The position numbers are program-made. This document shows positions 24,001 through 33,000 of a stretch of 64,000 nt of DNA, in pieces. The first letter of the stretch is position 1, and every line of letters begins with the position of its first letter. Source of the DNA: Escherichia coli (GTDB taxonomy: Bacteria; Pseudomonadota; Gammaproteobacteria; Enterobacterales; Enterobacteriaceae); NCBI RefSeq assembly GCF_048403405.1, contig NZ_CP183129.1. The stretch is one strand, 5' to 3'.

Positions 24001-27000
24001 CCCTCAAACCCAGAATAGTTAAATGGAATTTGAGTGATGCGAAGCGATTTTCCAGTCGTCGTTATTACTTCAGGGTTCCAGAACATAAAGCCTCTCCTCT
24101 TTCATGATTGGCCTGTGCATACCGGATATAGGCTGGCTGGTATGCAGGTTTGCCGTTTGCCGCATCTTCCCTGCGTTGAAGAGTCAGGCTGGCAAACCGC
24201 GTGCAAATGAACACCCCCACTTTCCATCAACACTTCAGACAGCTTGCGGGAATGAGTCCACTCCGGTATCAGAAATGGCTACGCCTCAATGAAGCCAGGC
24301 GACTGATGCTGAATGAACATTACGATGTCACCACTGCAGCCTATGCTGTCGGTTTCGAAAGCTTATCCCATTTCAGTCGGGAATATTCGCGGATGTTTGG
24401 AGAGTCACCTAAGAGAGATATTACCAGGTTAAGAAAGTCTGTCGGTCAGCTTTAATAAACCCTGCACTTATCTGTTTAAAGCAATTCCGTGTTAGTTACA
24501 CCAGGCAAACATTAACTATGGCTAATGATTTATAGCCATATAAACCATTGGTCGCTCTTGACCTTTCCTGACACTTCCCTTGTTCGCAATAATATTCTGT
24601 TTAGTCGCTGTTTATAAATAACATGCATAATGAAATCGTAATGTTATTTAGCGACATAAAATGTCTTTGCAAATACTCTCTACAACAAGTGCTGCAATAA
24701 ACTTGTTGAGATTAGGTGTCCTTGTAATTTAAAGATATTATCGTTCTTCGTGAAGTGTAATAACCCTGGAAACTATATTCTCAGGGCAATATCCCATCAA
24801 GAATGATTCTTGTTTTATAAGCAATAACAGAATGACTTAATTGTTAACTTTCTTTATTCAGCTACTTAAATATAAATTTTGGAGAATTATGAAACTCAAA
24901 CATGTCGGTATGATTGTCGTTTCTGTGTTGGCGATGTCGTCTGCTGCGGTAAGCGCAGCCGAGGGTGATGAATCAGTAACGACCACTGTTAATGGCGGTG
25001 TTATTCATTTTAAAGGTGAAGTGGTAAATGCCGCTTGTGCGATTGATTCAGAATCAATGAACCAAACGGTTGAGCTGGGTCAGGTCCGTTCTTCTCGTCT
25101 GGCTAAAGCGGGTGACCTCAGCTCCGCCGTTGGCTTCAATATCAAGCTGAATGATTGTGATACCAATGTTTCCAGTAATGCAGCTGTTGCATTCCTGGGT
25201 ACTACTGTCACCAGTAATGACGACACATTAGCGCTGCAGAGTTCAGCGGCAGGCTCTGCCCAAAATGTCGGTATTCAAATTTTGGACCGTACGGGGGAGG
25301 TATTAATACTTGATGGTGCCACTTTTAGCGCTAAAACTGACTTGATTGATGGCACGAATATATTGCCGTTCCAGGCTCGATATATTGCTCTCGGGCAGTC
25401 AGTAGCTGGTACTGCAAACGCAGATGCGACCTTCAAAGTTCAATATCTATAATTCAATCTTAAGGTGGCTATACGTCATCTGAAATTGAAACAGGGTGTG
25501 TGTGGCATGGCTACGCACACCCTAGCAACTCAGAAATGTGAATCTCATTATTAATGAGGAGTGGTTTGTATTTGGAGCGCTATGAAAAATCACATAATAT
25601 CTAAACGATCAATAAACAACAGTAGTTAAATTTACTGTTATTTAAAAAATTTACTTTGTAGCAAGGTTTTCCTATTAAAAGAGAACCAACATTTATTTCA
25701 AACGCATTAAGTCTGGAAACCCGGCGACTCGCCAATGTATTAGCAACATTTACCGATTGTCTGATGTAACGGTTTCCCCGCTTATCCTCTTAACACATGG
25801 AGAATGCATCAGATGCAAACTACGCGTACCCTCTACTCTATTTCCTTTATGGCGACAGTGTTACTTTTATTGCTCTTTGCTTGCCATAGCACCATTGCCA
25901 ACGCAGCTGTCGCACTGGGTGCGACGCGGGTAATTTATCCGGCAAACCAGAAACAGGTTTTATTGCCTGTCACGAATAATGATCCTGCCAGTGTCTATCT
26001 CATTCAGTCATGGATAGAAAATGCAGGTGACCAAAAAGACACCCAGTTTGTCATTACCCCACCGCTTTTTTCCATGCAAGGTAAAAAAGAGAATACGCTG
26101 CGGATAATCAACGCCACTAATCATCAGTTACCAGGCGACCGTGAAAGCCTGTTCTGGGTTAATGTTAAAGCTATTCCTGCTATGGAAAAAGATCAGAAGA
26201 ATGAGAATACATTACAGCTGGCAATTATTAGCCGCATAAAAATGTTTTATCGCCCCACGAACCTGGCAATGGCACCTGAAGAAGCGCCTGCAATGCTTCG
26301 GTTTCGTCGCAGCGGCAGCAAACTCACTCTTATTAATCCAACGCCCTACTTCATTACCGTAACAAATATGAAAGCAGGAAATAGCAATCTCCCAAACACC
26401 ATGGTGCCGCCAAAAGGTGAAGTATCGGTGGATATCCCGCATGCTGCAACCGGGGATATCAGTTTTCAGACGATCAATGATTACGGTGCATTAACTCCGC
26501 GTATTAAGGCAACCATGCAATAAGCCAGTGACCTAATTAATAATAAACTCAATCGGAATTAAAAATGACAGCCTTTCATGCCGCATTTAAGGCATATCGT
26601 ATGCATCAGGTGTTAATACTGCCTCGCTTTGTACGGCTTACCTTTGCCCTTGGCTTAGCAACTGCGGTTTTTCCCGTTGACGCAGAGTATTATTTTAATC
26701 CACGGTTTTTAAGCAATGATCTTGCTGAATCTGTCGATTTATCCGCCTTTACTAAGGGACGCGAGGCACCACCTGGTACATATCGGGTCGACATTTATTT
26801 GAACGACGAATTTATGACTAGTCGGGATATTACTTTTATTGCAGATGATAATAACGCAGATCTCATCCCATGCCTGAGTACAGATCTTCTTGTCAGTCTT
26901 GGCATAAAAAAATCAGCGTTATTAGACAATAAAGAACATTTGGCAGAAAAACATGTGCCGGACAACAGCGCATGCACACCACTTCAGGATCGTTTGGCCG

Positions 27001-30000: not shown

Positions 30001-33000
30001 TGTCCGGTTGAAACAAGTGCAGTGACGGCAATCGTGACAGGTTCAACTGACAATACGGGTTATTACAAAAATGAAGGTACTGCCGAAAATATTCAGATAG
30101 AGCTAAGGGATGACCAGGATGCGACGTTAAAAAATGGCGATAGCAAAACGGTTATTGTTGATGAGATCACTCGTAATGCACAGTTTCCACTTAAGGCAAG
30201 AGCTATCACGGTGAATGGAAACGCAAGCCAGGGAACGATCGAGGCGCTAATCAATGTGATCTACACCTGGCAATAACGTCGATTCGATTTTCTTAGCCTC
30301 CTTTTTAAATCAATTTTTTAACCTTAGGATATATCATGGGTAAAACAATAAGTATGAAGCTTCTGTTCGGTATTTATCTTCTATTAATGGCAGGCAAAGT
30401 TTTTGCCTTCAGTTGTAATGTCGATGGCGGGTCAAGTATTGGAGCAGGTACAACCTCTGTTTATGTTAATCTCGACCCTGTAATACAACCGGGCCAGAAT
30501 CTGGTTGTAGACTTGTCTCAGCACATAAGTTGCTGGAATGATTACGGCGGCTGGTACGACACTGATCATATAAACCTGGTACAAGGCTCAGCTTTCGCAG
30601 GCTCTCTACAGTCATATAAAGGCTCGCTGTACTGGAATAATGTGACCTACCCCTTCCCGTTGACGACAAATACTAATGTATTAGATATTGGTGATAAGAC
30701 ACCGATGCCATTACCGTTAAAACTCTATATTACCCCAGTCGGTGCGGCCGGTGGAGTTGTCATAAAAGCCGGGGAAGTTATTGCCCGTATTCATATGTAT
30801 AAAATTGCCACGTTAGGAAGCGGAAATCCGCGTAATTTTACGTGGAATATTATTTCAAATAACAGTGTTGTTATGCCAACAGGCGGCTGCACCGTTGATA
30901 GTCGTAATGTCAACGTGAATCTCCCGGACTTTCCTGGAAGCGCAGAAATACCCCTTGGCGTATATTGCTCAAGTGAACAAAAGCTCTCATTTTATCTTTC
31001 GGGTGCTACCACTGACAGTGCCAGACAAGTGTTTGCTAACACAGCACCAGATGCAACAAAAGCATCGGGAGTGGGTGTCTCTCTGATGCGTAATGGAAAA
31101 ATACTGGCTACGGGAGAAAACGTCTCCCTGGGGACAGTAAATAAAAGCAAAGTACCTCTGGGTTTAAGCGCAACCTATGGACAAACAGGAAACAAGGTTG
31201 CAGCCGGAACCGTCCAGTCAGTCATTGGTGTCACTTTTATCTATGAATAATTGTGATTTTGACATTGGTCTATGCGCTCCATTCACGAAAATTGCGCGGA
31301 TAATTATTTTGTGAAGGCTATTATCCTACATCTGTAAGAAAATCCGCGCACAATTGAAGCCAGAGTCTTATTTTTTATATTGAAAAATATGTTAATTTAA
31401 ACACTATGAGAGATGATGATTAATTTATCGTATTTAATCTTTTGTTTAACGATAATAGATTAAAATAGAAAGAGAGTAGTCCCCTACTCTTATATATCCA
31501 TGTTGACGATAATCCCTTTGTATATACTGTGCATCATCGCTATTACAAATCCTAATAATTCATTTCCACACAGGATAAGCAAATGAAGAAAAAAATTGAA
31601 TCCTACCAGGGAGCTGCCGGTGGTTGGGGTGCTGTTAAATCCGTAGCGAATGCAGTACGTAAGCAGATGGATATACGCCAGGATGTTATTGCCATGTTTG
31701 ACATGAATAAGCCAGAGGGCTTTGACTGTCCGGGATGTGCATGGCCAGATCCTAAGCACAGTGCGTCATTCGACATTTGTGAAAACGGCGCAAAAGCAAT
31801 CGCCTGGGAAGTCACGGATAAGCAGGTAAATGCCTCTTTCTTTGCTGAGAATACGGTTCAATCATTACTTAACTGGGGAGATCACGAGCTTGAGGCTGCG
31901 GGGCGTCTCACCCAGCCTTTGAAATATGATGCCGTCAGCGACTGTTACAAGCCATTAAGCTGGCAACAAGCTTTCGACGAAATTGGCGAACGCCTTCAAA
32001 GCTATAGTGATCCCAATCAGGTTGAATTCTATACTTCGGGCCGCACTTCCAATGAAGCTGCCTTTCTTTATCAGCTTTTTGCTCGTGAATACGGGAGCAA
32101 TAACTTCCCCGACTGCTCCAACATGTGCCATGAACCGACCAGTGTGGGTTTGGCAGCGAGTATCGGTGTAGGTAAAGGGACCGTGTTGCTGGAAGACTTT
32201 GAGAAATGCGATTTAGTCATTTGCATTGGGCATAACCCTGGTACAAACCACCCTCGCATGTTGACTTCGTTGCGCGCTTTAGTGAAACGAGGAGCGAAAA
32301 TGATCGCCATCAATCCTCTACAGGAACGTGGCCTGGAGCGATTTACCGCACCGCAAAACCCGTTTGAAATGCTGACGAACTCTGAGACTCAGTTGGCCAG
32401 TGCCTACTACAACGTGCGCATTGGTGGTGATATGGCGTTGCTCAAGGGGATGATGCGCCTGTTAATTGAGCGCGATGATGCTGCAAGCGCCGCAGGTCGG
32501 CCCTCATTGCTGGATGACGAATTTATTCAAACGCATACCGTCGGCTTTGACGAGCTACGCCGTGACGTTCTCAATTCCGAGTGGAAAGATATCGAGCGTA
32601 TTTCTGGACTAAGTCAGACTCAAATCGCCGAACTGGCTGATGCATATGCCGCTGCCGAACGCACCATTATCTGTTACGGAATGGGGATCACTCAGCACGA
32701 ACATGGTACCCAGAATGTACAGCAACTGGTCAATCTGCTGTTGATGAAAGGTAACATTGGCAAGCCTGGTGCGGGTATCTGCCCACTACGAGGTCACTCT
32801 AATGTACAGGGCGACCGAACCGTCGGTATCACCGAGAAACCGTCTGCAGAGTTTCTGGCTCGCCTGGGTGAGCGCTATGGTTTCACCCCACCTCATGCAC
32901 CTGGACATGCTGCAATTGCCAGCATGCAAGCAATATGTACGGGGCAGGCTCGAGCATTGATCTGCATGGGGGGCAACTTTGCACTGGCAATGCCAGATCG

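Follow-up and report, generated by a model that had tools for sequence, protein, structure and literature searches.

The F9 (Fml/Yde) fimbriae of Escherichia coli have already been cloned, imaged and shown to be repressed by H-NS, and their promoter has been mapped. Glycan-array profiles, crystal structures, and inhibitors and vaccines directed at them have been published as well. Repression by H-NS, expression at low temperature and binding to Gal(b1-3)GlcNAc and Gal(b1-3)GalNAc are described in PMC3966885, PMC5866590 and PMC7766294. The fimbriae are reported to be expressed at about 20 C and in the inflamed urinary tract, whereas a 2025 study of strain CFT073 found F9 expression to be low and not thermoregulated (PMC12890032); because of this conflict the temperature model is tentative. 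The f9 promoter and start site of CFT073 were mapped by 5'RACE, H-NS binds the promoter region, and H-NS motifs are predicted at -111 and -103 (PMC3966885).

The window analysed here is a stretch of 64,000 nucleotides of E. coli DNA (contig NZ_CP183129.1), 99.99% identical to strain 4621. Between 24456 and 31250 it carries what we take, with a probability of about 97%, to be an intact, six-gene copy of the chromosomal F9 (Fml/Yde) chaperone-usher fimbrial operon. The region contains six open reading frames with no internal stops, all on the plus strand, in the order major subunit, chaperone, usher, ydeS, ydeR and ydeQ (FmlH):

24889-25452, plus strand: major subunit gene (fmlA, CFT073 c1936 type), 187 amino acids
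25813-26523, plus strand: periplasmic chaperone (fmlC type), 236 amino acids
26565-29216, plus strand: outer-membrane usher, full length, 883 amino acids
29230-29760, plus strand: ydeS, FimF-like adaptor subunit, 176 amino acids, 45% identical to FimF
29773-30276, plus strand: ydeR, FimG-like adaptor subunit, 167 amino acids, 58% identical to FimG
30336-31250, plus strand: ydeQ (FmlH) tip adhesin, 304 amino acids

The locus aligns with CFT073 c1931-c1936, and its DNA is 97.1-97.5% identical to that of CFT073 and O157 over 7.5-8 kb. All six genes have exactly the length of their CFT073 and O157:H7 counterparts; the encoded proteins are 97.7-100% identical to these with no indels, and a search of the six genes for frameshifts against the same two strains revealed none. 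The initial annotation had described a complete six-gene operon of F9/ydeQRST type and proposed a comparison with the CFT073 F9 locus and K-12 ydeQRST. That comparison bears it out, confirming F9 orthology and a partly deleted copy in K-12. The gene ydeP lies directly downstream of the operon (start 31583), while hipBA is found upstream at about 14.9-16.5 kb, with a variable insert between it and the operon. Flanked by ydeP and the hipBA side, as PMC3966885 describes for F9, the locus occupies the F9 position. The GC content of the operon is 44%, and that of the whole window 48%. Each protein differs from the experimentally tested alleles by 0-16 residues, none of which falls in the motifs that we examined.

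The two-domain chaperone, full-length usher and pilin/adhesin architecture are those of a chaperone-usher system of the FimD-like usher clade. Pfam domains run from end to end in the usher, chaperone and adhesin, and each protein can be aligned to a solved Fim structure along its entire mature sequence or almost so. The pilin subunits possess a signal peptide, a conserved Cys pair and a C-terminal beta-strand motif, to which the adhesin adds an N-terminal lectin domain. Among the individual products, the major subunit is 100% identical to that of O157 and matches CFT073 at 184 of 187 positions. The chaperone contains PapD_N and PapD_C domains, is identical to its CFT073 homolog at 232 of 236 residues and to FimC at 60%, and retains the Arg8 and Lys112 motifs of FimC (ATRVIYP and NVKAIP) in alignment with that protein. 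Its longest open reading frame begins at 25804, but the ATG at 25813 is preferable as the start: RefSeq annotates it, it has the better distance to a GGAG, and strain WL297 lacks an ATG at position 25804. The usher, identical to that of CFT073 at 868 of 883 residues, shows full model coverage for PapC_N (43-195), Usher (213-795) and PapC_C (804-868), and its residues 20-883 align to FimD structures. The adhesin is laid out as a 24-amino-acid signal peptide, a lectin domain and a pilin domain (FimH_man-bind and Fimbrial). Over residues 25-184 it matches the crystallised FmlH lectin domain (PDB 6AOW) with 100% identity, and the galactoside pocket residues listed in PMC5866590 (F1, Y46, D53, K132, N140 and R142) are each present. 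Downstream of ydeQ a terminator scan of the plus strand revealed no intrinsic terminator; an AU-rich hairpin at about 31369-31389 folds no better than background (z = -0.57).

E. coli K-12 MG1655 keeps only ydeQ, ydeR, ydeS and a 5'-truncated ydeT (usher codons 476-883), as the initial annotation had stated. What it lacks is the following interval:

~24711-27989, no strand: about 3.28 kb missing in K-12 MG1655, junctions placed within 1-2 nt

The deletion extends from leader position +74 to usher codon 475 and removes the major-subunit and chaperone genes, so that K-12 is unable to assemble an F9 fimbria. As the case shows, K-12 serves poorly as a reference here. Among 5,426 complete E. coli genomes the F9 locus is intact in 3,553 (about 65%); Wurpel et al. 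(2014) reported an intact operon in 60%. The intact operon is therefore the majority state in E. coli and no special property of this strain.

The operon is preceded by a non-coding leader of 433 bp (24456-24888; 32% GC), the low GC content of which makes H-NS binding plausible here as well. The initial annotation had called this a 430-bp AT-rich leader carrying several short inverted repeats; the former description holds and can now be refined to a mapped promoter followed by a 251-nt 5'UTR. The elements of the leader, and one in the spacer behind the major-subunit gene, are:

24517-24540, no strand: inverted repeat TATGGCTA-N8-TAGCCATA cited in the initial annotation, -121 to -98 from the start site
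24602-24607, plus strand: f9 promoter -35 hexamer TAGTCG, the same as in the CFT073 promoter
24615-24650, no strand: perfect 10-nt inverted repeat TAAATAACAT-N16-ATGTTATTTA, bracketing the -10 hexamer and start site
24626-24631, plus strand: f9 promoter -10 hexamer CATAAT, preceded by an 18-nt spacer, invariant in 8 of 8 strains aligned
24638-24888, plus strand: 5'UTR, 251 nt, with the start-site G at 24638 as mapped from CFT073
24683-24708, plus strand: hairpin CAACAAGT-N10-ACTTGTTG in the 5'UTR, +46 to +71
25493-25523, plus strand: GC-rich stem-loop of 13-14 bp in the spacer, with no U tract after it

From the -35 hexamer to the start site (24602-24638) the promoter matches the mapped CFT073 promoter exactly. 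A consensus promoter scan missed it, its -35 hexamer fitting at only 3 of 6 positions; the scan flagged CTGACA-N16-TAATAT at 24568-24595 instead, a candidate which lacks experimental support and which we discarded. The 5'UTR, the length of which (251 nt) is a minor unexplained point, has a folding z-score of -2.35 and carries the Shine-Dalgarno GGAG of the fmlA-type gene at 24881-24884. Both arms of its hairpin are invariant in 8 of 8 strains, and the hairpin adjoins the left edge of the K-12 deletion. An Rfam search of 23700-31700 for known RNA families gave only a chance match to OxyS (E = 0.38, far below the gathering score).

Perfect inverted repeats, counted at arm lengths of 8 nt or more and loops of up to 20 nt, are enriched in the leader (3 versus an expectation of 0.26 under dinucleotide shuffling; P about 0.001), in agreement with the initial annotation. 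The repeat which it cited as a possible regulator site is another matter. A lone 8-nt repeat is unremarkable, being found in 23% of shuffles, and the one at 24517-24540 is perfect only in this lineage, retaining 6 of 8 positions in K-12, O157, CFT073 and O104; for both reasons it does little to support a regulator site. We rejected it as such. It overlaps the published H-NS motif predictions and may at most be part of an H-NS site. The repeat at 24615-24650 is kept in 7 of 8 strains (it is broken in WL297). Arms as long as its 10 nt arise in 1.5% of shuffles, which leaves the repeat as a candidate for an operator or an H-NS site.

The major-subunit and chaperone genes are separated by a 360-nt non-coding spacer (25453-25812) with a folding z-score of -4.66. 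Its open reading frames are all of 44 amino acids or fewer, and indels occur between strains. A decayed fimI was considered and dismissed, TBLASTN with the fmlA, ydeS, ydeR and ydeQ proteins giving noise only (E above 29). The stem-loop at 25493-25523, present in a single copy per genome, is essentially invariant in 7 strains, whereas its flanks vary; this constancy is a further minor unexplained point. We infer that it is a transcript-stabilising or attenuating element which would set the ratio of subunit to assembly machinery. By either route it might let the major subunit be made in larger amounts than chaperone and usher. That the 5'UTR with its hairpin and the spacer stem-loop together form an undescribed layer of post-transcriptional control is a rather doubtful idea. 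Simple melting of the Shine-Dalgarno sequence fails to explain control, since at 15-20 C the sequence is predicted to be slightly more occluded than at 37 C. Nor is a thermometer within the 5'UTR supported: predicted pairing of the Shine-Dalgarno/AUG region falls only from 0.71 at 15 C to 0.58 at 37 C, which runs the wrong way for cold induction. Diversity within the species is too low to allow covariation support for the leader and spacer structures.

Three other readings of the region were weighed. RefSeq names three of its genes fimA, fimF and fimG, which is misleading at an F9 locus; taken literally, the names would make this a second type 1 (mannose-binding Fim) operon. The NCBIfam equivalog scores do exceed their cut-offs for FimA (174 versus 140; this protein is 70% identical to FimA), FimF (239 versus 200) and FimG (257 versus 220), and the gene order resembles fimACDFGH. 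Yet the proteins share only 45-70% identity with those of K-12 Fim, scores for the FimC and FimD models fall short of the cut-offs, there is no FimH equivalog match, and the lectin domain is identical to that of galactoside-binding FmlH. Moreover fimI, fimB and fimE are absent and the chromosomal locus differs from that of fim. The operon thus falls outside the type 1 fimbriae, and we give this assignment next to no credence. Equally improbable is a promoter carried on a fimS-like invertible segment, making the operon phase-variable through DNA inversion. What recommends this proposal is a 15-nt inverted repeat (24316-24330 / 24631-24645) which matches at 14 of 15 positions, flanks 300 bp including the -35 and -10 hexamers in a fimS-like geometry, and is equalled in only about 3.5% of shuffles. 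The inverted junction, however, occurs in 0 of the 5,114 genomes carrying the sequence, whereas the same test applied to fimS as a positive control found the alternate orientation in 245 of 4,716. The leader keeps a collinear arrangement in 3,434 genomes; the repeat matches at only 13 of 15 positions in other strains, and its left arm is missing from CFT073, SK1144 and WL297, all of which still have F9. No recombinase gene is annotated in the 64-kb window, as judged from a near-identical genome. We accordingly rejected inversion of the promoter segment that these 15-nt repeats enclose, and the initial annotation was right in seeing neither a fimB/fimE-type recombinase nor a switch.

The third proposal is that the operon, though intact in sequence, is permanently silent here, cryptic like other H-NS-silenced chaperone-usher loci of K-12. 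H-NS represses F9 at 37 C (PMC3966885), the recent CFT073 study found it low and not thermoregulated (PMC12890032), and the upstream AraC-family gene is only a remnant. We nevertheless consider permanent silence unlikely. Wild-type CFT073 expresses the same promoter and operon at 20 C (PMC3966885), its promoter elements being identical to those present here; F9 matters in mouse urinary tract infection (PMC5866590); and six intact reading frames in about 65% of genomes argue for continued selection. The reading that we retain is that of an intact F9 operon, and from its sequence we would expect the fimbria to be expressed and assembled in this strain.

Based upon the systems described, transcription would begin at 24638 from the sigma-70-type promoter mapped in CFT073 and proceed through the AT-rich 251-nt 5'UTR, with H-NS presumably binding the promoter region and silencing it at 37 C, as the literature reports. 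The subunits would be exported by the Sec pathway, capped by the PapD-like chaperone through donor-strand complementation, and polymerised by the FimD-like usher through donor-strand exchange. The probable order of assembly is the FmlH tip adhesin, the YdeR and YdeS adaptors, and then the major-subunit rod. The FmlH lectin domain would be expected, from published work, to bind terminal beta-galactosides, namely Gal(b1-3)GalNAc, Gal(b1-3)GlcNAc and galactosylated plant xyloglucan.

The F9 operon described here is an already known system, real but ordinary, and as a discovery it carries little weight; glycan arrays, electron microscopy and lectin-domain binding, which the initial annotation had proposed as checks, have already been published for F9. 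The strain is of some interest in being near-identical to a human blood isolate, and galactoside inhibitors have been designed on exactly its FmlH lectin-domain sequence, so that these tools should be applicable to the strain.

Compared with the F9 systems of CFT073 (c1931-c1936), UTI89 (fmlA-H) and O157:H7 (Z2200-Z2206 / ECs2113 region), this operon shares the locus and six-gene order, and its proteins show only allelic differences. The region just upstream differs by strain: here it comprises an insert of ~7 kb with a LysR gene and oxidoreductase genes, together with an AraC-family remnant, whereas CFT073 has SDR and LysR fragments, and in K-12 and O157 hipA is followed directly by the AraC-family remnant. 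The K-12 remnant lies at the same locus, and its ydeQ, ydeR and ydeS are 97-99% identical. It still has the f9 promoter together with the initial ~73 nt of the leader, but has lost the greater part of the 5'UTR, the genes for the major subunit and the chaperone, and usher codons 1-475. The type 1 fimbriae (fimAICDFGH) are a paralogous gamma-1-type chaperone-usher system with the same assembly logic, six homologous proteins and a two-domain tip adhesin with a FimH-fold lectin domain. They differ in possessing fimI, in place of which F9 has the 360-nt non-coding spacer, and the fimB/fimE-fimS switch, F9 having neither recombinases nor an invertible promoter. The adhesin of type 1 fimbriae binds mannose, whereas that of F9 binds beta-galactosides (PMC5866590).

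At 24889–31250 the window carries an intact operon for F9 (Fml/Yde) chaperone-usher fimbriae, a feature which is already known and common. It comprises six genes, each an open reading frame (ORF) without internal stops:

24889–25452, plus strand: major subunit, 187 aa
25813–26523, plus strand: chaperone, 236 aa
26565–29216, plus strand: usher, 883 aa
29230–29760, plus strand: ydeS, 176 aa
29773–30276, plus strand: ydeR, 167 aa
30336–31250, plus strand: ydeQ, 304 aa

The longest ORF for the chaperone begins at 25804, while the annotated start is the ATG at 25813, which is better spaced relative to a GGAG and is the only conserved start of the two, since strain WL297 reads ACA at 25804. 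The operon was compared with the F9 loci of CFT073, the strain in which this fimbria was characterised, and of one O157:H7 strain. All six genes have the same length in the three loci, and the alignments revealed no frameshifts. Identities to the CFT073 proteins are 184/187 (major subunit), 232/236 (chaperone), 868/883 (usher), 174/176 (YdeS), 165/167 (YdeR) and 297/304 (YdeQ); the O157 versions of the major subunit and YdeS show no differences (100% identity). Full Pfam models are covered in the usher (PapC_N, Usher, PapC_C), chaperone (PapD_N, PapD_C) and adhesin (FimH_man-bind, Fimbrial), and the respective F9 proteins align with the solved structures of FimA, FimC, FimD, FimF, FimG and FimH over all or nearly all of the mature length. 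The Arg8 and Lys112 motifs of FimC are kept in the F9 chaperone. The matching lengths, complete domains and unbroken reading frames bear out the initial annotation, in which all six genes had been called intact, and its interpretation of the locus is supported.

The operon is incomplete in K-12, as stated in the initial annotation. MG1655 aligns in two blocks, window 24246–24708 and 27990 onward, and lacks about 3.28 kb (about 24711–27989), with junction microhomology of at most 1–2 nt. The loss extends from +74 of the leader, across the genes for the major subunit and the chaperone, through usher codons 1–475; its left edge adjoins the invariant hairpin at 24683–24708. The promoter of f9 is retained together with ~73 nt at the beginning of the 5'UTR (24638–24710; positions 3385–3462 of the K-12 locus L002). 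Both are fused to 'ydeT at usher codon 476, so that this promoter could still drive transcription of the remnant ydeT-ydeS-ydeR-ydeQ. A K-12-type left junction occurs in roughly a quarter of leader-matching genomes (11 of 40 evenly spaced rows).

In YdeQ, residues 25–184 match the crystallised lectin domain of the tip adhesin FmlH (PDB 6AOW and related entries) at 100% identity, and all six residues reported to contact the ligand (F1, Y46, D53, K132, N140 and R142; Kalas et al. 2018, PMC5866590) are present. YdeQ is 47% identical to K-12 FimH. Judged by its sequence, therefore, YdeQ is the galactoside-binding F9 adhesin and not a mannose-binding FimH.

The non-coding leader 5' of the major-subunit gene (24456–24888, 433 bp) has a GC content of 32%, versus 44% in the operon and 48% across the window. 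In CFT073, 5'RACE placed the start site at a G located 251 nt upstream of the ATG, preceded by a -35 element (TAGTCG), an 18-nt spacer and a -10 element (CATAAT), and H-NS was demonstrated to bind and repress f9 (Wurpel et al. 2014, PMC3966885). These promoter elements are exact in the window (-35 at 24602–24607, -10 at 24626–24631, start site at 24638); thus, the leader consists of about 180 bp of promoter region and a 251-nt 5'UTR. Perfect inverted repeats with arms of at least 8 nt and loops no longer than 20 nt are over-represented in it (3 observed versus 0.26 expected, P about 0.001). That at 24517–24540, singled out in the initial annotation, is real, with the perfect copy confined to the window lineage; it matches at 6/8 positions in K-12, O157, CFT073 and O104:H4, is degenerate in WL297, and overlaps the H-NS motifs predicted at -111 and -103 (PMC3966885). 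A 10-nt repeat (24615–24624 / 24641–24650) flanks the -10 hexamer and start site and is conserved in 7/8 strains, while an invariant 8-nt repeat (24683–24708) is predicted to form a 5'UTR hairpin. No Rfam family matched the leader. Simple melting of the 5'UTR, as modelled, fails to account for cold induction, and a 2025 study saw no thermoregulation of F9 in CFT073 (PMC12890032).

We considered whether the f9 promoter might lie on an invertible element resembling fimS, the promoter switch of type 1 fimbriae. A 15-nt inverted repeat (24316–24330 and 24631–24645, 14/15 match) flanks 300 bp containing the promoter in a fimS-like geometry, which about 3.5% of shuffles produce by chance. The junction predicted from inversion was constructed and searched in all complete E. 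coli genomes; it was found in 0 of the 5,114 matching the sequence. As a positive control, the same construction was applied to fimS from K-12; 245 genomes carried its alternate orientation and 4,464 the reference one. The repeat matches at only 13/15 positions in other strains, its left arm is missing in CFT073, SK1144 and WL297, and 3,434 genomes show a collinear leader. The annotation of the matching 64 kb lists no recombinase gene. We therefore rejected an invertible f9 promoter, in agreement with the initial annotation, and the 15-nt repeat is probably due to chance.

For the 360-nt spacer following the major-subunit gene (25453–25812), predicted folding is much stronger than for shuffled controls (z = -4.66). 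Within it lies a hairpin (25493–25523) with a GC-rich stem of 13–14 bp, 41 nt past the stop codon and without a U tract; across seven diverse strains it is essentially unchanged, between flanks that vary. Each genome has one copy of the region. Analogy with other pilus operons suggests that this hairpin may act on the major-subunit transcript, by stabilising or attenuating it. Neither the folding nor the hairpin is described in the F9 papers cited.

The DNA is E. coli chromosome. Strain 4621, isolated from human blood, matches the 7.6 kb around the operon at 100% identity and the flanking regions, compared separately, at 99.99%. The one exception in the flanks is a deletion of 353 bp in the window near 17 kb (~17057), inside a LysR-family regulator gene, leaving a truncated 143-aa ORF (17005–17436, minus strand). 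Downstream of the operon ydeP starts at 31583; upstream are an AraC-family C-terminal remnant (24190–24455), a strain-variable insert of ~7 kb and hipBA. The remnant, a helix-turn-helix of the yneL / ECs2114 type directly 5' of the f9 promoter region, derives from a gene truncated in the window strain, K-12, O157 and O104:H4 and absent from CFT073. Between hipA and this remnant, the insert (~16900–23800) encodes the LysR regulator, a glutamine amidotransferase-like protein, two aldo/keto reductases, split amidohydrolase fragments, and NAD(P)H oxidoreductase, quinol monooxygenase and carboxymuconolactone decarboxylase-family proteins; content at this position differs in each of CFT073, K-12 and O157. 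An ORF at 9271–14691 for an 1806-aa ECSE_1600-family autotransporter is intact in the window; MG1655 and the O157:H7 strain examined have its counterpart annotated as a pseudogene with a frameshift.

Among 5,426 complete E. coli genomes, 5,396 contain some part of the locus, 3,553 (65%) have 80% or more of it as a single collinear block, and the spacer that separates the chaperone gene from the major-subunit gene was found in 3,656. The discovery value is therefore low, the spacer hairpin and the F9 temperature response being small questions within a known system.

The F9 proteins are paralogues of the K-12 type 1 proteins, with identities of 70% (A), 60% (C), 58% (D), 45% (F), 58% (G) and 47% (H). 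The NCBIfam cut-offs are passed for FimA, FimF and FimG and not for FimC and FimD, and no gene of the operon matched an NCBIfam model for FimH. In matching genomes, RefSeq automatic annotation calls the F9 major-subunit and adaptor genes (24889–30276) fimA, fimF and fimG; these names are misleading and arise because paralogues of 45–70% identity pass equivalog cut-offs. Such labels could distort gene counts for type 1 fimbriae. No pilin remnant, fimI included, was found in the 360-nt spacer: unlike the type 1 operon, where 64 nt separate fimA from fimI, F9 lacks fimI and has this non-coding spacer in its place.
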